The notes: generated by a model not told the origin, from the sequence alone. A DNA stretch of 8,177 nucleotides from an uncultured bacterium (GCA_965364435.1 CBDTXL010000188.1:1-8177); one strand, 5' to 3'. Counted from the first letter of the stretch, positions 2,699-8,177 are shown. Made by a program: numbers and translations.

Positions 2699-3697
2699 CT
2701 AAGTCCAAGCACGGAAGAAGGTGTTATCTTGCCAGCTGGCAGCTGTGCGTTGCTCAATCTGTGCTAAGGATGCCTCATTAAGTGGCTGGAATGCTCGTGC
2801 TACTTCCACATTGGACTCTAACTGAGCGACGCTTTCAGCAGCAATGATGCAACAATGCACTCCAGGCTGGGAGAGAGTATATCCCATTGCTTGGTGCATC
2901 CCATCCAGAACTCCTGGTTTGAACAAACGCCCATAGGCTGGGACTTTCATGGCTATGACGCCGACTCCCTTCTGACGTGCTACTGGCAGCACGGTGGGAA
3001 TGAAGGGACGCGGATGATGTTTGTCTGCGGCGTTGATGCAAATGAGGGTGGTGTCGAAGGGATATCGACGCAACCCTTCTGCGATAATATCTGGCTCGTG
3101 ATGACCGCTAATGCCAGCAAAGCGAATGAGTTTCTGTGCTTTGGCTTCTTCTAAAGCTTTTGCGGCTCCGTCTTTACTAAAGATTTTGTCCAGTTCTTCC
3201 TTAAAGGAGACGTGGTGAAGTTGCCAGAGATCGAGGTAGTCGGTGTTGAGGCGTTTTAGCGATCGCTCCAACTCCTTCCATACTCCATCGCGATCGCGTT
3301 CTGCTGTCTTACTTGCCAAAAATACCTTCTCTCGGTGCGATGGCAGTACTTTCCCCAAATAATCTTCACTTGGTCCATAACTAGATGCTGTATCAAAGTA
3401 GCGGATACCCAATTCCAAAGCACGTTGGATAATCGCTACGGCATCCCGTTCGCGGTTCTCCCAGGATAACGGCGTTTGCCCTGCACCCCCTAAACCGAAG
3501 ATTGGCACACGGACACCAGTGTTGCCTAACTCTCGTTCTGGCATGGCTGTTGTGCTTGGCGGCTGGTTTGTTGTTACTGATGGTTGGTCTTTTGAAGCAG
3601 AGGTGAGATTTTGTGTCAACGCTGCACCTCCGATAATTCCACCAGCAACAGCAACACTCGTCGTCAAAAAAGTGCGTCTTGTTGTTTTTCGATTCAT
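2699..3697 (-). CDS. Aldo/keto reductase family oxidoreductase with an N-terminal twin-arginine (Tat) signal peptide
   Basis: ATG at 3697. A GGAG on the coding strand (complement of 3707-3710) lies 9 nt upstream. The N-terminus MNRKTTRRTFLTTSVAVAGGIIGGAALT has the T-R-R-x-F-L Tat motif plus a hydrophobic region. It is followed by a Ser/Thr/Pro/Gln linker and then a canonical AKR core: 'LGNTGVRVPIFGLGG', 'RYFDTASSYG' (catalytic Asp/Tyr), 'VFLASK' (Lys) and 'DYLDLWQLHH' (His). Confidence 0.9.
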   Translation of the reverse strand: MNRKTTRRTFLTTSVAVAGGIIGGAALTQNLTSASKDQPSVTTNQPPSTTAMPERELGNTGVRVPIFGLGGAGQTPLSWENRERDAVAIIQRALELGIRYFDTASSYGPSEDYLGKVLPSHREKVFLASKTAERDRDGVWKELERSLKRLNTDYLDLWQLHHVSFKEELDKIFSKDGAAKALEEAKAQKLIRFAGISGHHEPDIIAEGLRRYPFDTTLICINAADKHHPRPFIPTVLPVARQKGVGVIAMKVPAYGRLFKPGVLDGMHQAMGYTLSQPGVHCCIIAAESVAQLESNVEVARAFQPLNEASLAQIEQRTAASWQDNTFFRAWT

Positions 3698-3935
3698 ATG
3701 CTACTGCTCCGCTTCTTCTTTCATTTTGCTTACAGAATTAAAAAAAGAAAGCCCACCCGGAAATTAATTCCGCGCTAATCAATTAAGTCCATTAAAATGG
3801 AATGAAATTCATGTATAGTCAGCATTTAGTTCTCTTGAAAGGACTTTAGCTATTAGCCTTTGGATTTGAATCCCTAGCGGGTAATTACGCCAGTCTAAGA
3901 TGTCAGATTGACAAGTTCATCTCCATAGCGACGTA

Positions 3936-3999: not shown

Positions 4000-4440
4000 A
4001 TGGACCCTGCAACATTGTCTGCGGCAGCGATCGCTACTTTGGTCATCACAAAAGCGTTTGAGAAGACTGGTGAAGTGCTTGGGGAAAAGGCACTGGAGCA
4101 AGGCGGAAAGTTGGTAAGATTGCTGAAAGAGCGATTTCCCAAGGCAGATTCGGCACTTGCGCGGGTGGAGGAGAAACCGGAAGATTGGGGAGAAGCGGTT
4201 CTGGAAGTTGAAGCGGCGGCTAAGGCAGATCCTGAAGTGGCAGAAGCGGTTCAGGAGGTAGCGACGGCGGCGAAGGAAAACGCGAATGCCGAGATTGTGC
4301 AAAAACTCCAAGCGATAGAAGATGCAATAAAGGCTCAACAACCCACCACTAAACAGGAATTTGGTAAAGTGGCAGAGGTAGTTGAAAAAGCCGTTTTTGG
4401 CAATACCTTCCGGGATTTTAGTGGTGGCGTTCACTTTTGA
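4000..4440 (+). CDS. 146-aa all-helical, Glu/Ala/Lys-rich protein with a hydrophobic N-terminal helix. It reads as the detached N-terminal (putative effector or adaptor) domain of the downstream NB-ARC/TPR protein
   Basis: ATG 4000 is the first start after the in-frame TAA at 3970-3972. MDPATLSAAAIATLVIT is an uncharged hydrophobic segment. It is followed by amphipathic, acidic helical sequence (KAFEKTGEVLGEKALEQGGKLVRLLKERF ... DPEVAEAVQEVATAAKENANAEIVQKLQAIEDAIKAQ). The protein ends FGNTFRDFSGGVHF-TGA (4438-4440). It shares the frame and the G-ending codon style of the NB-ARC region downstream. The antisense 152-aa ORF is Arg/Cys/Phe/Leu-rich and looks like a shadow ORF. Confidence 0.7.
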   Translation: MDPATLSAAAIATLVITKAFEKTGEVLGEKALEQGGKLVRLLKERFPKADSALARVEEKPEDWGEAVLEVEAAAKADPEVAEAVQEVATAAKENANAEIVQKLQAIEDAIKAQQPTTKQEFGKVAEVVEKAVFGNTFRDFSGGVHF

Positions 4441-4554
4441 CTGAACTCGCCCGAACCGGAACGGGTAAAGTTAAATCCACCACAAAATCTTCCCCGTAGC
4501 GGTGTTGTTAAGTTTGTCGGACGGGAAGAGATACTCGATACTTTACACCAGCAG

Positions 4555-6450
4555 TTGCAGCAAAACGAGCGTATTGCCATTTCTGCGATCGCGGGAATGG
4601 GGGGTGTTGGGAAAACGGAATTGGCGCTGCAATATGCTGGCGAACAGTGGAAGCAGGGGAGGTATCCCGGTGGGGTTTGCTGGTTGCAGGCGCGGGGAGT
4701 AGATTTGAGGATTCAAATTGTAGCGTTTGCTAGGGCGCATTTGCCGTTGCGTATCCCGGAGGATTTGGAGTTGTCGCTTCAGGTAGCGTACTGCTGGCGG
4801 AATTGGTTGCCGGGGGAGGTGCTGATAGTACTGGATGATGTGACCGATTATAAGCAAGTGAGGGAGTACCTGCCGTCAGATGCGCCTCGATTTAAGGTGC
4901 TAATTACAACTCGGTTGCAGTTGGGTGCATCGATTGAGCATTTGTCGCTGGATGTCCTCAAACCTAGAGCAGCACTGGTTTTATTGGAGTCGCTGGTTGA
5001 TCGGGAACGACTGAAAAAAGAGCCGTGGGTGGCGCGAAAACTCTGTCGGTGGCTGGGATATTTGCCGTTGGGTTTGGAGTTGGTGGGGCGATATCTGAGG
5101 CGGAAACCGGATTTGTCTCTGGCGGAAATACTGTCTCGCTTGCAGGCAAAACGGTTAGAACAGTTAGCGCTGAAAAAGCCCAAGTCAGAGAATGATATGA
5201 CAGCTCAGTTAGGGGTGCAAGATGCTTTTGAGTTGAGTTGGCAAGAATTGGATGAGTCAGCGCAGAAGTTGGGGTTATGCTTGAGTTTATTTGCCCTTGC
5301 TCCGATTCCGTGGCAGTTGGTGGAACGATGCTTGCCGGATAGTGACCCAGAGGAACTCGAAGAGATTAGAGACTATAGTCTGGTCAATCTGCATCTGGTT
5401 GGGCGAAAAGGAGACAACACCTACCAGTTGCACCAACTGATTCGAGAATTCTTTTGTGCGAAGCTGAAACAGTCAGCAGAAGCCGACGACCTGAAGCGGG
5501 GATTTTGTCAGGTAATGGTGGCTGTGGCAAAGGAAATTCCTTATGAACCTAGCTGTGAGTTAATTGCTGCTCTCGCGCCTGCAATTCCTCATCTAGTAGA
5601 GGTCGCTGATCATCTGACCACCTATCTTAGCGACGAAAATTGTGCAGTACCTTTTTCACGTTTGGGTAGGTTCTATGAAGGTCAAGAGTTTTATGTTCAG
5701 GCAGAATGCTGGTATAAGCAGTGCTTAGAAGCTAGCAAAAAGCGCTTGGGTGATGAACATCAGACCGTAACAACCAGTCTTAATGATCTGGCTTACATCT
5801 ACAAATCTCAAGGTCGTTACTTGGAAGCAGAGCCGTTATATATAAAAGCACTAGCCCTAAGGAAACGCTTACTTGGAGGAGAACACACCAATGTGGCACA
5901 AAGTCTCAACAACTTAGCAGGACTTTACCGTAAGCAAGGTCGCTACTCAGAAGCAGAACCGTTTTTGCTTGAAGCGCTAGCACTAAGAAAACGCTTACTT
6001 GGAGAAGAACACACCAATGTGGGACAAAGCCTTAACCATTTGGCGTATCTTTACTATGAGCAAGGTCGTTACTTAGAAGCAGAGTCGTTTTACCTGCAAG
6101 CTTTATCGCTATACAAAGACCTTCTGAAGGAGAATCATCCTCATACAGCAACTAGCCTTAATAATCTGGCACTACTATACGAAGCTCAGGGGCGTTACTT
6201 GGAAGCTGAACCTTTGTATCTTCAAGCGTTGAAATTAAGACAAAGATTGATAGGAAAAGAACATCCGCGTTCAGTAATTAGTCTTACTAATCTGGCTAAG
6301 TTATACCATACTCAAGGACGCTACACTGAAGCCGAACTCCTGTATGTGGAAGCGTTGGAGATTGCGGAACGAACTTTAGGGGTAAATCATCCCAACACTG
6401 TCACCATCCGTGAGAATCTTCAAAAACTGCGCGATAAGCACGCTGCCTGA
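4555..6450 (+). CDS. NB-ARC (AP-ATPase/STAND, NLR-like) NTPase fused to six kinesin-light-chain-type TPR units. The called TTG start is probably artificial, because homology extends upstream to 4441
   Basis: NB-ARC hallmarks: Walker A GMGGVGKT (4594-4617); Walker B VLIVLDDV (4819-4842); 'KVLITTR' sensor-I-like motif; 'GYLPLGLELVG' (GLPL motif); winged-helix end 'YQLHQLIREF' (MHD-equivalent). These are followed by six repeats of 'SLNNLA.LY..QGRY.EAEPLY..AL.L...LLG.EH'. The pre-P-loop segment NLPRSGVVKFVGREEILDTLHQQ is encoded at 4486-4554, upstream of the called start. Stop TGA at 6448-6450. Confidence 0.9.
   Translation: MQQNERIAISAIAGMGGVGKTELALQYAGEQWKQGRYPGGVCWLQARGVDLRIQIVAFARAHLPLRIPEDLELSLQVAYCWRNWLPGEVLIVLDDVTDYKQVREYLPSDAPRFKVLITTRLQLGASIEHLSLDVLKPRAALVLLESLVDRERLKKEPWVARKLCRWLGYLPLGLELVGRYLRRKPDLSLAEILSRLQAKRLEQLALKKPKSENDMTAQLGVQDAFELSWQELDESAQKLGLCLSLFALAPIPWQLVERCLPDSDPEELEEIRDYSLVNLHLVGRKGDNTYQLHQLIREFFCAKLKQSAEADDLKRGFCQVMVAVAKEIPYEPSCELIAALAPAIPHLVEVADHLTTYLSDENCAVPFSRLGRFYEGQEFYVQAECWYKQCLEASKKRLGDEHQTVTTSLNDLAYIYKSQGRYLEAEPLYIKALALRKRLLGGEHTNVAQSLNNLAGLYRKQGRYSEAEPFLLEALALRKRLLGEEHTNVGQSLNHLAYLYYEQGRYLEAESFYLQALSLYKDLLKENHPHTATSLNNLALLYEAQGRYLEAEPLYLQALKLRQRLIGKEHPRSVISLTNLAKLYHTQGRYTEAELLYVEALEIAERTLGVNHPNTVTIRENLQKLRDKHAA
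5653..6405 (+). repeat. Array of six 126-nt (42-aa; the first unit is 41 aa) TPR units inside the NLR-like CDS
   Basis: The repeat unit SLN.LA.LY..QGRY.EAE..Y..AL.L...L.G..H..... occurs at an exact 126-nt period. For example, 5848-5901 and 5974-6027 differ at only 5 of 54 nt. Confidence 0.9.
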
Positions 6451-6577: not shown

Positions 6578-6640
6578 CATTCAGACAAGCTTCGCCAAAG
6601 CTGATAATTAAAATTGATAAGGTGAATCAGGCAGATAGTG

Positions 6641-6961
6641 ATGACATCCCTAACGAATACCCCCCATAAGTATGTGCAACTTGATGAGCGCAATGTGCCA
6701 ATCATTGCCGGAACTACCATGAAAGTCGTCGAATTGGTCATGGCTCAGATAGCGTATGGTTGGAGTCCTGAAGAGTTGCAATTTCAACATCCCTATTTGA
6801 CAATGAGCCAGATTCATTCGGCATTGGCTTATTACTGGGATAACAAAGAGGAACTTGATGCAGATATCAAGCGACGAGAGGAGTATTCCGAAAAGTTACG
6901 CAGGGAAGCAGGTGAATCTCCTTTTGTTGCTAGACTACGGGCACAGGGGCTATTGAAGTGA
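6641..6961 (+). CDS. DUF433 domain protein, putative antitoxin of a type II TA pair
   Basis: 'NVPIIAGTTMKVVELVMAQIAYGWSPEELQFQHPYLTMSQIHSALAYYWDNKEE' matches the DUF433/COG2442 pattern (I.GTR..V..+......G.S.EEI....P.L....I..AL.YY). The start is either ATG 6641 or the adjacent GTG 6638. The stop TGA (6959-6961) overlaps the next gene's start. Confidence 0.85.
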   Translation: MTSLTNTPHKYVQLDERNVPIIAGTTMKVVELVMAQIAYGWSPEELQFQHPYLTMSQIHSALAYYWDNKEELDADIKRREEYSEKLRREAGESPFVARLRAQGLLK

Positions 6962-7305
6962 GTCTAGCCTTCTACATGGATGAACACATACACCGAGCAG
7001 TTACGGCTGGGCTGCGTCTACGAGGTGTAGATGTTCTAACCGTTCAGGAAGATGAACGCACTAGCTTCCCTGACCCGATAATACTTGACCGTGCCACTGA
7101 ACTTCAGCGACTTTTGTTTACACAAGACGAAGATTTTCTAGCTGAAGCTAATCGCCGTCAGGAGCTGGGCATGAATTTCACCGGTATCATCTACGCCTAT
7201 CAATTGCTTGTCTCTGTTGGCGATTGTGTGCGTGACCTGGAAATCATTGCTAAAGCTGGCAAACCTGAAGAGTTTGCCAACCGAGTCCAATATCTGCCCT
7301 TGTAG
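6958..7305 (+). CDS. DUF5615 / Mut7-C-type PIN-like protein, putative toxin of a type II TA pair
   Basis: 'LAFYMDEHIHRAVTAGLRLRGVDVLTVQE......DPIILDRATELQRLLFTQDEDFL' fits the DUF5615/COG4634 pattern (F..DE.....+...L...G.DV......G....D..+...A..E.R+L+T.D.DF). GTG 6958 overlaps the upstream TGA as GTGA, which suggests translational coupling. An alternative ATG at 6976 would remove the first beta-strand. Confidence 0.85.
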   Translation: MSLAFYMDEHIHRAVTAGLRLRGVDVLTVQEDERTSFPDPIILDRATELQRLLFTQDEDFLAEANRRQELGMNFTGIIYAYQLLVSVGDCVRDLEIIAKAGKPEEFANRVQYLPL

Positions 7306-7370: not shown

Positions 7371-8177
7371 TTATTGCAATTTCAGAAACTTCTCCAAGGC
7401 AGCAACCATCACTGGCGGCCAACGGCGGACAGTTTTCACCCACTCCAAATCTTTGTAGCGCCTATCCAGACCAACAACTGCCGCCCAATTACTCTCAGCT
7501 TCACCCTGTTTTCCCGCTGACCACAACGCCGCCGTCAGTGCAGCCCGTACATCGGGAAATTGTGGGTATTTTCGGATAATATTACGCATCGTGCGAATCG
7601 CTTCCTCTGTCTGCCCCGTCTGATAGAGGGCGAGGGCGTAATTAGCACGAGCAAAAGCAAAATTAGGGGCTAACTCAGTCGCCTTCTGGTAGTCCGCGAT
7701 CGCTTCTTCCCATCGTCCCTGTCCAGCTTTCGCATTACCGAGGTTGTTGTAAGCCATCGCGTCGTTGGGTTCTAGTTCCAGCACCCGCTTGTAGTCGCTA
7801 ATGGCATCCTCCCACCGACCTTGCCCTTCAAACGCCGTGCCGCGATTCAAATAGGGGTCAGCTGCATTTGGAGCCAACTCAATGGATTTATTGTAGTCAG
7901 CGATCGCCTCTTTTAACTTATTCTGACTAACCCTGGAATTCCCCCGGTTACTCCAGCCCACTGGATTTTCTGGCAAAAGCTCAATCAGCTGTGTCCAGTA
8001 ACCTTCGGCAGTTGGGAAGTCACCTTTATCCGTAGCAGCAAAAGCCTTCTGCCTTAGCTCATTAAATTGCTGCAATTGAGCCTCAGTCAAGTCCGGTGTC
8101 TGCGCCTGCGCCATCACTGGCCCAGCTGAACAAAAAACTAGTAGTACACAAAGTAAAGTCAGAATCCAGCGAATCAT
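7371..8177 (-). CDS. Exported TPR-repeat protein with a Sec signal peptide
   Basis: Complete ORF: the ATG is the reverse complement of 8175-8177, at the window edge, and the stop is TAA at 7371-7373. The signal peptide is MIRWILTLLCVLLVFCSAGPVMA|QAQ. There are several 34-aa TPR units with the 'W..A+.DY.+A+EL.PN.A.AY.N+G' pattern. The conserved-looking C-terminus is 'RRYKDLEWVKTVRRWPPVMVAALEKFLKL'. Confidence 0.9.
   Translation of the reverse strand: MIRWILTLLCVLLVFCSAGPVMAQAQTPDLTEAQLQQFNELRQKAFAATDKGDFPTAEGYWTQLIELLPENPVGWSNRGNSRVSQNKLKEAIADYNKSIELAPNAADPYLNRGTAFEGQGRWEDAISDYKRVLELEPNDAMAYNNLGNAKAGQGRWEEAIADYQKATELAPNFAFARANYALALYQTGQTEEAIRTMRNIIRKYPQFPDVRAALTAALWSAGKQGEAESNWAAVVGLDRRYKDLEWVKTVRRWPPVMVAALEKFLKLQ

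Follow-up and report, generated by a model that had tools for sequence, protein, structure and literature searches.

A conserved UGA-C stop codon followed by a covarying pseudoknot suggests programmed readthrough in cyanobacterial NLR-like genes

How can the body of a gene be translated when it lies behind a stop codon and has no start codon of its own? The question is raised by a stretch of 8,177 nucleotides from an uncultured bacterium (GCA_965364435.1 CBDTXL010000188.1:1-8177; the window, hereafter), in which a single in-frame TGA divides an NLR-like gene at positions 4000–6450 into a short open reading frame (ORF) and a long NB-ARC/TPR body. A sequence-only reading of the window had described these two pieces and had left three explanations standing side by side: (a) a very recent nonsense mutation, (b) a sequencing or assembly error, and (c) leaky or programmed readthrough, giving a free N-terminal domain together with a small amount of full-length sensor. 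The comparative evidence described here favours the third. The locus most probably undergoes programmed UGA readthrough, by which one gene, decoded in two ways, would give a Bell-like effector in free form and, more rarely, a Bell-NB-ARC-TPR fusion. To what was known of the locus the analysis adds a covarying pseudoknot 8 nucleotides (nt) past the stop, an N-terminal domain apparently of the Bell type, and relatives in which the same two parts are separate genes and the RNA element is missing.

The stop codon and the frame that continues past it

The two same-frame ORFs were recovered as originally described, one at 4000–4440 and the other within an open frame that reaches 6450. The unit is made up of the following parts (aa, amino acids).

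4000–4437, plus strand: codes for the short product, 146 aa from an ATG start, a Bell-like helical domain with the N-terminal hydrophobic helix MDPATLSAAAIATLVITKAFEKTGE
4360–4437, plus strand: C-terminal tail of the short product, FGKVAEVVEKAVFGNTFRDFSGGVHF, a candidate amyloid-type (BASS-like) signalling motif
4438–4441, plus strand: candidate recoded stop UGA with the C at +4, the conserved junction
4441–4554, plus strand: protein-coding linker without a start codon, including the FVGRE helix that precedes the P-loop
4525–5184, plus strand: NB-ARC (STAND) NTPase domain (PF00931, E = 1.6e-16; residues 29–248 of the post-stop translation)
4594–4617, plus strand: Walker A motif GMGGVGKT, inside NB-ARC
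5638–6375, plus strand: TPR sensor repeats (TPR_12/TPR_10; TPR_12 E = 1.4e-83)
4000–6450, plus strand: putative full readthrough unit, 146 aa + recoded codon + 669 aa = 816 aa

The stop stands in the context TTT TGA CTG, with the TGA at 4438–4440, and the frame then remains open for 669 codons, free of any further lesion, up to an ordinary TGA-A at 6448–6450. It is not credible that a frame of this length is open by accident. Since TGA also serves as a normal stop elsewhere in the window (6448 and 6959), the genetic code is not reassigned. The NB-ARC domain scores 60.7 bits against a cutoff of 23.5 for PF00931 and contains Walker A, and the C-terminal repeats, with 275 bits for TPR_12 in six stretches and 225 bits for TPR_10, have the character of a repeat sensor.

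The gap between the two ORFs (4441–4554) is open and yields the same translation as before, LNSPEPERVKLNPPQNLPRSGVVKFVGREEILDTLHQQ. The first in-frame ATG, GTG or TTG past the stop is the TTG at 4555, 13 codons ahead of Walker A, and the 18 nt upstream of it (GATACTTTACACCAGCAG) hold no Shine-Dalgarno (SD)-like run (GGAG, GAGG or AGGA); between 4440 and 4555 a scan of the plus strand gave no promoter-like and no terminator-like site. That coding sequence lies in this gap is borne out by hidden Markov models (HMMs): on the 4441–6447 translation the NB-ARC alignment starts at residue 29, which is nt 4525, and the alignments of AAA_16 and of NCBIfam FxSxx_TPR begin at residue 24, all of them upstream of 4555.

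Both pieces are called as separate genes in five assemblies (JGI 3300018894, ENA ERZ27286126, Logan SRR5855414, ENA ERZ27286106 and ENA ERZ23498675). The last of these is identical to the window; the other four contigs differ from it at 29–34 of 621 positions around the junction (~5%), with synonymous changes among the differences in the flanking codons (TTT to TTC, CTG to CTA), and all four keep the TGA and show no other lesion. Because the stop is present in five independent assemblies, explanation (b) is effectively excluded.

The stop is also a property of a family. The 146-aa product has 169 relatives, from Coleofasciculus, Nostoc, Calothrix, Scytonema, Fischerella, Tolypothrix and others, nearly all of them called as free-standing proteins of 104–161 aa, and many of the short ones terminate in ...F (alignment A1). 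Several copies of the 146-aa ORF are named 'cysteinyl-tRNA synthetase' by JGI and other family members MnmG, YciM and the like, names that appear to be spurious. An exhaustive HMM search returned 501 clusters; among the top 150 representatives about nine have more than 190 aa, and two of those nine carry the linker. The set of loci studied for their context comprises 80 from GTDB species genomes, out of 325 that matched the A1 profile of the N-domain. Of the 80, 64 have an ORF that terminates at TGA-C, behind which frame 0 stays open for at least 90, usually 500–1200, codons; these loci span Coleofasciculus, Nostoc, Komarekiella, Scytonema, Tolypothrix, Brasilonema, Aerosakkonema, Waterburya, Microcystaceae and others.

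At every one of the 64 TGA-C junctions the continuation lies in frame 0. The peptide encoded there follows the pattern L-[QKHNY]-S-P-E-x-E-R-V-K-x-N-P ... PQNLPLSGVxxFVGRE ... GMGG[VL]GKT, and it leads into NB-ARC, other P-loop NTPases, or bodies with transmembrane segments. Of 81 junctions, 64 read TGAC, and a C occupies +4 in 97% of cases. Where long ORFs of these loci end in the ordinary way, the stop is TAA 79 times, TAG 54 times and TGA 34 times, and 10 of these 167 stops are TGA-C. A conserved in-frame stop with a coding-type continuation of the frame is what a recoding signal would present. Explanation (a) is excluded because the same TGA-C stands at the homologous site in 64 of 80 loci and in many genera, and because all 61 distinct motif-defined metagenome cassettes have a stop there (TGA, or TAG in one family). 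This also answers in the affirmative the question, raised by the sequence-only reading, of whether a TGA recurs at this site in independent strains, and the answer, like the start of the NB-ARC alignment upstream of 4555, counts in favour of (c). The stop is old and family-wide; therefore an uninterrupted protein of about 815 aa, formerly taken as the simplest ancestral state, was not the immediate one. What does stand, with support from the comparative evidence, is the proposal that 4000–6450 forms a single translational unit and that one UGA-C interrupts it.

The arrangement of UGA-C, spacer and pseudoknot, the last two of which are described in the following section, is referred to here as the cassette. 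Within 16 codons past the stop no cassette locus has an ATG, GTG or TTG, and across these loci the first candidate start ranges from codon 17 to codon 54. In L050 and in L006 (Coleofasciculus, the closest genome relative) this first candidate is the ATG inside the Walker A motif GMGGVGKT, and a protein starting there could not be a functional NTPase. Gene callers do begin the NLR at that ATG (P0001, P0002, P0121–P0130), truncating the P-loop strand.

Selection on the linker was evaluated in window codons 17–38, which lie past the RNA element and before TTG 4555. The ratio of non-synonymous to synonymous substitution rates (dN/dS) is 0.186 against L006 (dS 1.14) and 0.112 against L023; these two were used because the closest relatives, L001 and L004, have too few linker substitutions to be informative. 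For comparison, NB-ARC gives 0.18 and the N-domain 0.07–0.10. Codons 17–38 are taken to be translated, since their dN/dS is indistinguishable from that of NB-ARC.

The codon next to the stop is CUA in 44 of the 64 cassettes. TGG takes the place of the stop in both continuous homologues with the linker: P0048/L086 reads ...NQEF-W-LYSPERERVK... and retains an intact pseudoknot, and P0379/L087 reads ...VTFN-W-LESP..., with a weakened stem and a frameshift downstream. The presence of TGG fits a putative near-cognate decoding of UGA by tRNA-Trp, and it is well known that UGA is commonly misread by this tRNA, for example in A1 of phage Qbeta. In L087 (213–2022) the frameshift stands ahead of a NACHT-like body. 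The closest continuous NB-ARC paralogues (P0004, P0005, P0015, P0021 and others) join PQNLP...FVGRE to N-terminal modules of other kinds, namely effector-associated domains (EADs; PF19954, PF19959, PF19955, PF19960), trypsin-like PF13365 and TIR PF13676, without the SPERERVK linker. Because continuous paralogues with other modules lack it, the linker peptide tracks with the RNA cassette.

The pseudoknot and the cassette

The nucleotide consensus at the junction is TTC TGA CTA CAG TCG CCT GAA GGG GAA CGG GTA AAG TTA AAT CC. Third codon positions from +5 to +38 hold ~1.15 bits on average, against ~0.57 upstream of the stop and ~0.45 beyond +42, and 97% of sequences have G in the third position of the Ser codon (TCG). 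The element in which this constraint lies is an H-type pseudoknot, with an 8-nt spacer, a stem 1 of the form G-C-C-Y-G / C-R-G-G-Y, an 8-nt loop, a 9-nt A-rich loop 3, and a stem 2 formed by the G-run of the loop and a downstream UCCC. In the window it occupies the following positions.

4441–4448, plus strand: spacer of 8 nt between stop and RNA structure (CUGAACUC in the window; family consensus CUACAGUC)
4449–4466, plus strand: pseudoknot stem 1, GCCCG (4449–4453) with CGGGU (4462–4466), closing the 8-nt loop AACCGGAA (4454–4461)
4458–4478, plus strand: pseudoknot stem 2, GGA (4458–4460) with UCC (4476–4478), across the A-rich loop 3
4467–4475, plus strand: loop 3, A-rich, 9 nt, AAAGUUAAA

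The pseudoknot was first spotted by eye and then tested by explicit pair counts, with covariation counted on an ungapped alignment of 51 sequences (A2). In stem 1, 99.6% of cells are paired, and three of the five pairs show compensatory changes (CG/UA at 19:34, CG/UG/UA at 21:32 and GC/CG at 22:31). In stem 2, 80.8% are paired, and pair 27:47 is GC in 40 sequences, AU in 5 and GU in 4, with zero mismatch. When both stems are taken together, 90.2% of cells pair, compared with 23–51% when the partner is slid. Changes on both sides of a pair number 33, against 6.0 +/- 2.1 after shuffling, and none of 500 shuffles reached the observed value. In some of the covarying pairs one partner is a synonymous site and the other is non-synonymous (Pro CCU/CCC with Gln CAG/Arg CGG), a link that protein-level selection alone does not explain. 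The cassette has, in other words, a covariation-supported structure on the 3' side of the stop and at a fixed distance from it, the second feature to be expected of a recoding signal. A search of Rfam gave no match to the cassette at either the gathering or a permissive threshold.

Another helix can be drawn around the stop itself: UGACU (window 4438–4442; A2 columns 7–11) can pair with AGUUA of loop 3 (4469–4473; columns 38–42). This outer helix (UGACU with AGUYA) is pairable in 96% of sequences, and in the TAG variant described below as well. Its columns do not vary in A2, so covariation says nothing for or against this helix, which might be an alternative fold in which the stop is concealed.

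Two independent scans have evaluated how closely the structure and the stop go together. A covariance model of positions +3 to +44 alone, with the stop excluded, was run on both strands of 632 kb (the window plus the loci); it gave 58 hits, each beginning exactly one base past the junction codon, and zero elsewhere, and the hits include loci outside the set from which the model was built. Metagenome contigs were scanned with the pattern YNNNCTRNANYCGYCYGNNNNNNAACRGRYAAAG, in which the cassette is fixed and the junction codon free. The junction codon was TGA in 63 matches, TAG in 6 (one family) and a sense codon in 3, and the three last look like unrelated sequences matched by chance. In the 61 distinct stop-containing metagenome cassettes the pairing of stem 1 reaches 100%; at pair 19:34 there are 32 UA, 28 CG and 1 UG and no C-A, although the pattern permitted C-A. 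Stem 2, whose 3' arm lies outside the search pattern, is 88.9% paired, against 27–67% when slid.

The cassette is preceded by other N-terminal modules too, both divergent 'MEP...' Bell-like domains and alpha/beta-hydrolases of 200–300 aa (DUF676/PGAP1-like). For this reason it is regarded as a portable linker module and not as the peculiarity of one gene, and, as it also follows hydrolases, at least two unrelated effector classes are coupled to NLR-like bodies. The hydrolase cassettes are metagenomic (L098, L120, L133, L139, L148) and have the motifs GHSxGG and STPHxGS. The TAG family, likewise from metagenomes (L091, L093, L099, L101, L145, L146), has the same linker and pseudoknot, a 148-aa MEP-type domain upstream that ends in ...NHNHYYPSDTNKEH, and a GGYGKS-type NTPase downstream. 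Its existence indicates that the type of stop codon is not essential to the cassette. Individual loci depart from the common pattern in various ways: L069 (4001–4255) has a premature TAA inside the Bell domain and an intact cassette, L010 is truncated, and in L028 the TGA-C is followed by just 6 codons, with a second Bell-like ORF 441 nt downstream.

The N-terminal domain, its two-gene relatives and the surrounding locus

What, then, is the protein that ends at the stop? The 146-aa N-domain matched no Pfam, NCBIfam or PADLOC family. Its AlphaFold2 (AF2) model, with a mean predicted local distance difference test (pLDDT) value of 85.6, is an all-helical bundle of seven helices, the first at residues 3–16; residues 119–136 are modelled as helical and residues 138–146 as disordered. 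A Foldseek search of the domain against PDB gave nothing with E < 1, and weak rows for Mcl-1, BAK and Rx-CC were non-significant and were not used. The N-terminus of the window protein is MDPATLSAAAIATLV and the family consensus is MEPxTLTAAAIATLVITKAFEKTGE; the protein is short and a helical bundle in the model, with a hydrophobic helix at its N-terminus and an acidic residue in position 2–3.

Bell domains form a family of helical, membrane-targeting effectors of cell death. They have been described in short proteins of 120–140 aa encoded beside NLRs in multicellular bacteria (Dyrka et al., 2020, bioRxiv 10.1101/2020.01.06.895854) and are related to the fungal HeLo/Hell domains and to the four-helix bundle (4HB) domain of MLKL. 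Bell-type domains with an N-terminal 'MEPIS' motif have been associated with membrane-associated abortive infection (bioRxiv 10.1101/2024.11.07.622273). The hallmarks of the N-domain, that is M-D/E-P followed by a hydrophobic helix, a length of ~125–150 aa and a position adjacent to an NLR in filamentous cyanobacteria, appear to match the published Bell domain, to judge from its sequence and predicted structure.

In relatives without the cassette the NLR has its own start codon, in any of frames 0, 1 and 2, and in six loci (L011, L025, L064, L074, L084, L085) the N-terminus of the NLR repeats the C-terminal motif of the Bell protein; the two copies in L011 are GKLAEKIGMVIQGGTVNI and GKLTEKIGIYGKDSQFII. 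These cassette-less loci have the two-gene arrangement of Dyrka et al. (2020). The tail of the window protein (FGKVAEVVEKAVFGNTFRDFSGGVHF) aligns with the shared motif at a low identity of 17–38% (alignment A4), and it is a candidate amyloid-type (BASS-like) signalling motif. Past the stop of the window nothing resembles the tail; the same-motif pair of BASS systems is absent, and the NLR part is without an N-terminus of its own. In the window the motif would be carried on the NLR by the read-through product alone.

The two loci in which the stop is TGA-A or TGA-G (L009 and L007) both lack the conserved linker. In L009 a GTG directly past the stop opens an ORF of 455 codons in the same frame; L007 has an ATG behind its stop, with 99 codons open there, and its long ORF begins in a different frame 346 nt farther downstream. 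L085, from a metagenome-assembled genome of Coleofasciculaceae, has an NLR that starts MTTENWNGINIKGGNPVINISQSERAKLNPP..., with the Bell tail motif and then a linker remnant, SQSERAKLNPP; the covariance model gave no match in this locus. Its sequence suggests that the two-gene and readthrough designs may interconvert in evolution.

The remaining features of the window lie around the unit.

3792–3819, plus strand: promoter-like -35/-10 pair, TTAAAA-16-TATAGT, 9/12 matches, a weak consensus match only
2699–3697, opposite strand: aldo/keto reductase, upstream of the N-domain ORF
177–1523: DUF4114/PMP-repeat protein, farther upstream
6638–6961: DUF433 ORF, directly downstream of the NLR gene
6958–7305: DUF5615/Mut7-C PIN-like ORF, overlapping the DUF433 ORF by 4 nt (ATGA)
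7371–8177, minus strand: TPR protein, downstream

The gene order of the window is common to L001, L004 and L005. The layout of the DUF433 and DUF5615 ORFs, also found 3' of the NLR gene in these three loci, resembles a toxin-antitoxin pair. When 2053–4032 of L004 is compared with 4597–6450 of the window, the variant P0002 (659 aa) is ~99% identical through the NB-ARC region and strongly divergent from the helical/TPR region on, being 42 aa longer; it looks like a sensor-domain replacement, possibly by recombination between strains that share the N-terminal half and the TGA cassette.

Competing explanations, mechanism and significance

The alternative that deserves most attention, though it is unlikely, is that the locus holds two separate genes, the NB-ARC-TPR protein being made by internal initiation (at TTG 4555 or a non-canonical start) or by termination-reinitiation, and the structure acting past the stop as a coupling, insulating or 'ribosome termination structure' element. 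Gene callers and public annotation do split the locus in two, and Bell and NLR are truly separate in the cassette-less relatives. Stable post-stop structures that affect reinitiation are known from bacteria (PMC7518266). The missing SD is in turn a weak argument for readthrough, because cyanobacterial genes often lack one. Several points speak against two genes. True two-gene relatives use frames 0, 1 and 2, but cassette junctions use frame 0 in 64 of 64 cases; no start lies in the first 16 codons, and the first one available is variable in position and falls inside Walker A in L006 and L050. The pre-start linker, with its FVGRE segment covered by the NB-ARC HMM, is under protein-level purifying selection, CUA, the post-stop codon in 44 of 64, is not an initiator, and TGG replaces the stop in some homologues whose linker is the same. 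Where the cassette is missing, L009 has a GTG directly past the stop and the long ORF of L007 is in another frame. Recoding of a different sort, in the form of a ribosomal hop, a frameshift or transcriptional slippage, is considerably less likely still. Stop-codon hops are known from synthetic E. coli constructs (review PMC5009743), and the window has a TTTT run just ahead of the GA of its stop; yet most relatives read TTC TGA and so have no homopolymer run, the pre-stop codon varies (UUC, UUU, AAC, AUU, AUA, ACU and others) with no matching landing codon, and the downstream domain is in frame 0 from the first post-stop codon.

The notion that the gene is dead, a TGG to TGA nonsense mutation having killed a continuous Bell-NB-ARC-TPR gene, is highly improbable. 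TGA is indeed one transition away from the TGG of the two continuous homologues, and individual loci do decay (the premature TAA of L069, the downstream frameshift of L087, the truncation of L010), but strains, paralogues and members of several cyanobacterial orders all keep the stop, which is followed by a dedicated RNA structure that covaries, the 669 post-stop codons are free of lesions, dN/dS is 0.07–0.19 on both sides, and a divergence of dS > 1 excludes copies of a single, recently spread dead element. Selenocysteine, with the downstream hairpin as a bacterial selenocysteine insertion sequence (SECIS), is given an equally small chance. A UGA with a conserved stem-loop within ~11 nt inside a coding sequence has the layout of a bacterial SECIS, and the loop is G-rich; however, the TAG family has the same cassette and the continuous homologues have Trp (TGG) and not Cys, which together argue against it. 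Besides, the site lies in a disordered interdomain linker with no redox centre, the element is a pseudoknot with no Rfam match, and the sequence features of a selenoprotein gene (UGA alone, Cys in the homologues without selenocysteine, a SECIS hairpin) are absent. Early surveys found selD/ybbB and no selenocysteine decoding in cyanobacteria. As for a sequencing or assembly error at 4438–4440, its likelihood is close to nil: the window is apparently metagenomic (it is identical to the ENA scaffold L005), but the TGA recurs in assemblies of JGI, ENA and Logan that derive from different samples and differ at flanking synonymous sites, and in many isolate genomes.

Programmed readthrough would operate at this locus as follows. 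Most ribosomes would terminate at UGA 4438–4440 and release the 146-aa Bell-like protein with its short C-terminal motif, and a minority would pass the stop and make the 816-aa Bell-linker-NB-ARC-TPR protein. Passage would be promoted by the weak UGA-C context, the 8-nt spacer and the H-type pseudoknot; UGA-C is the weakest terminator tetranucleotide in E. coli. The inserted residue would most likely be Trp, delivered by the near-cognate tRNA-Trp. The long form may be the sensor: detection of a trigger by its TPR domain would lead to NB-ARC oligomerisation and to clustering of the N-terminal Bell-plus-motif modules, which would nucleate or recruit the abundant free short form, with membrane damage and abortive infection as the outcome. 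Readthrough would in this way replace the motif duplication of the two-gene Bell/NLR pairs and fix a high effector-to-sensor ratio in translation. Since termination efficiency depends on release factor 2 (RF2) and on the state of the tRNAs, readthrough could respond to infection or stress.

A broader claim, to which slightly better than even chances are given, is that the portable UGA-C/spacer/pseudoknot cassette is the first family-wide case of structure-stimulated programmed readthrough in cellular bacterial genes, giving an abundant death effector and a rare effector-NLR fusion. The free effector would be Bell-like or lipase-like, and the fusion, once it had sensed the trigger, would seed or recruit the pool of free effector.

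Several observations weigh against readthrough or against parts of the mechanism. The case for it is built on comparative sequence analysis, and many of the cassette loci counted as 64 of 80 are paralogues or close kin, so that such counts are not independent events. Stem 2 has just 3 bp in the window, where most relatives have 4–5 bp; the minimum free energy structure of the single window sequence takes another register, with the outer helix UGACU/AGUUA; the z-scores of single-sequence folds are weak, from -1.8 to +0.8; and RNAalifold found no consensus structure in the ungapped block around the stop. Conservation of the first ~13 codons past the stop could come from the RNA constraint alone. 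The amyloid or nucleation role of the tail relies on an alignment of low identity, and part of the tail is helical in the AF2 model. With hydrolase-type effectors, there is the question of how the free enzyme stays inactive. Finally, we know of no demonstration of pseudoknot-stimulated readthrough on bacterial ribosomes.

Programmed readthrough with a downstream pseudoknot is textbook knowledge for retroviruses and for some plant viruses, and to our knowledge no conserved device of this kind has been reported from chromosomal genes of bacteria. The gag-pol signal of murine leukaemia virus (MuLV) consists of a stop, a spacer of ~8 nt and an H-type pseudoknot. This case, which is mentioned in a review of recoding (Atkins, 2016, PMC5009743), resembles the cassette in having an in-frame stop between an abundant short product and a rare fusion, the ratio being set in translation, and in the ~8-nt spacer that leads to a compact H-type pseudoknot. 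MuLV is, in contrast, a eukaryotic virus that uses UAG and 80S ribosomes, whereas the cassette resides in chromosomal bacterial genes, uses UGA-C (TAG in one family) and is found in dozens of paralogous immune-type genes; its pseudoknot is shorter (5 bp + ~4 bp, with a 9-nt A-rich loop 3), and its activity is a prediction from sequence. The coat/A1 pair of phage Qbeta is similar to the proposed cassette in its leaky UGA, read by tRNA-Trp at a few percent, and in a minor extended protein that co-assembles with the major one, but it is a phage gene and not a cellular gene family, and no dedicated downstream pseudoknot is known to be required. The bacterial SECIS shares with the cassette a UGA closely followed by a conserved structure within the coding sequence, and differs from it in that the cassette has TAG variants, Trp and not Cys in its stop-less homologues, a pseudoknot topology and a position in a linker.

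Among immune systems, the Bell/NLR BASS pairs (Dyrka et al., 2020) and Bab/Agp (bioRxiv 10.1101/2024.11.07.622273) likewise have, in multicellular cyanobacteria, a short Bell-type protein of ~120–150 aa, with M-E/D-P ahead of a hydrophobic N-terminal helix, beside an NB-ARC/TPR protein. In these published pairs, however, a start codon and a copy of the motif belong to the NLR itself; the window has no second copy and no such start, and a conserved stop and a pseudoknot join the frames. Neither paper mentions stop codons or readthrough. The fungal HET-S/NWD2 pair and other prion-like effector/NLR pairs, in which conversion of a separate, membrane-targeting helical effector is seeded by an NLR, may be alike in principle, but they are two genes, eukaryotic, and without recoding. 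The EAD adaptors are related through the close NB-ARC paralogues of the window family, which carry Pfam EADs at their N-termini; the concept there is that the same module is present on a free effector and on an NTPase and that the copies interact homotypically (Kaur et al., 2020, PMC7159879). EAD systems consist of two genes with one copy of the module each, whereas in the window one gene would supply both forms, and that paper mentions neither stop codons nor readthrough. A study of in-frame stops in prokaryotes (Belinky et al., 2021) mentions neither cyanobacteria nor RNA structures. In the literature covered, which is incomplete and includes Dyrka 2020, the Bab/Agp paper, Kaur 2020, Kaur 2021, a 2026 STAND survey, Belinky 2021 and Atkins 2016, this stop, its readthrough and its pseudoknot in cyanobacterial NLR-like genes are undescribed.

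If the proposal is true, the cassette would provide a natural bacterial model of recoding, whose dozens of variants form a ready 'mutagenesis' series made by covariation, and hundreds of cyanobacterial annotations would have to be corrected. It would explain why Bell-type proteins seem to be orphan small genes beside NLRs that apparently lack a start codon, and it would make the nucleation model of bacterial NLR signalling directly testable. For the cyanobacteria that carry it, readthrough would be a simple translational means of setting the stoichiometry of effector to sensor, with a sensor that has a built-in copy of the effector's assembly module.

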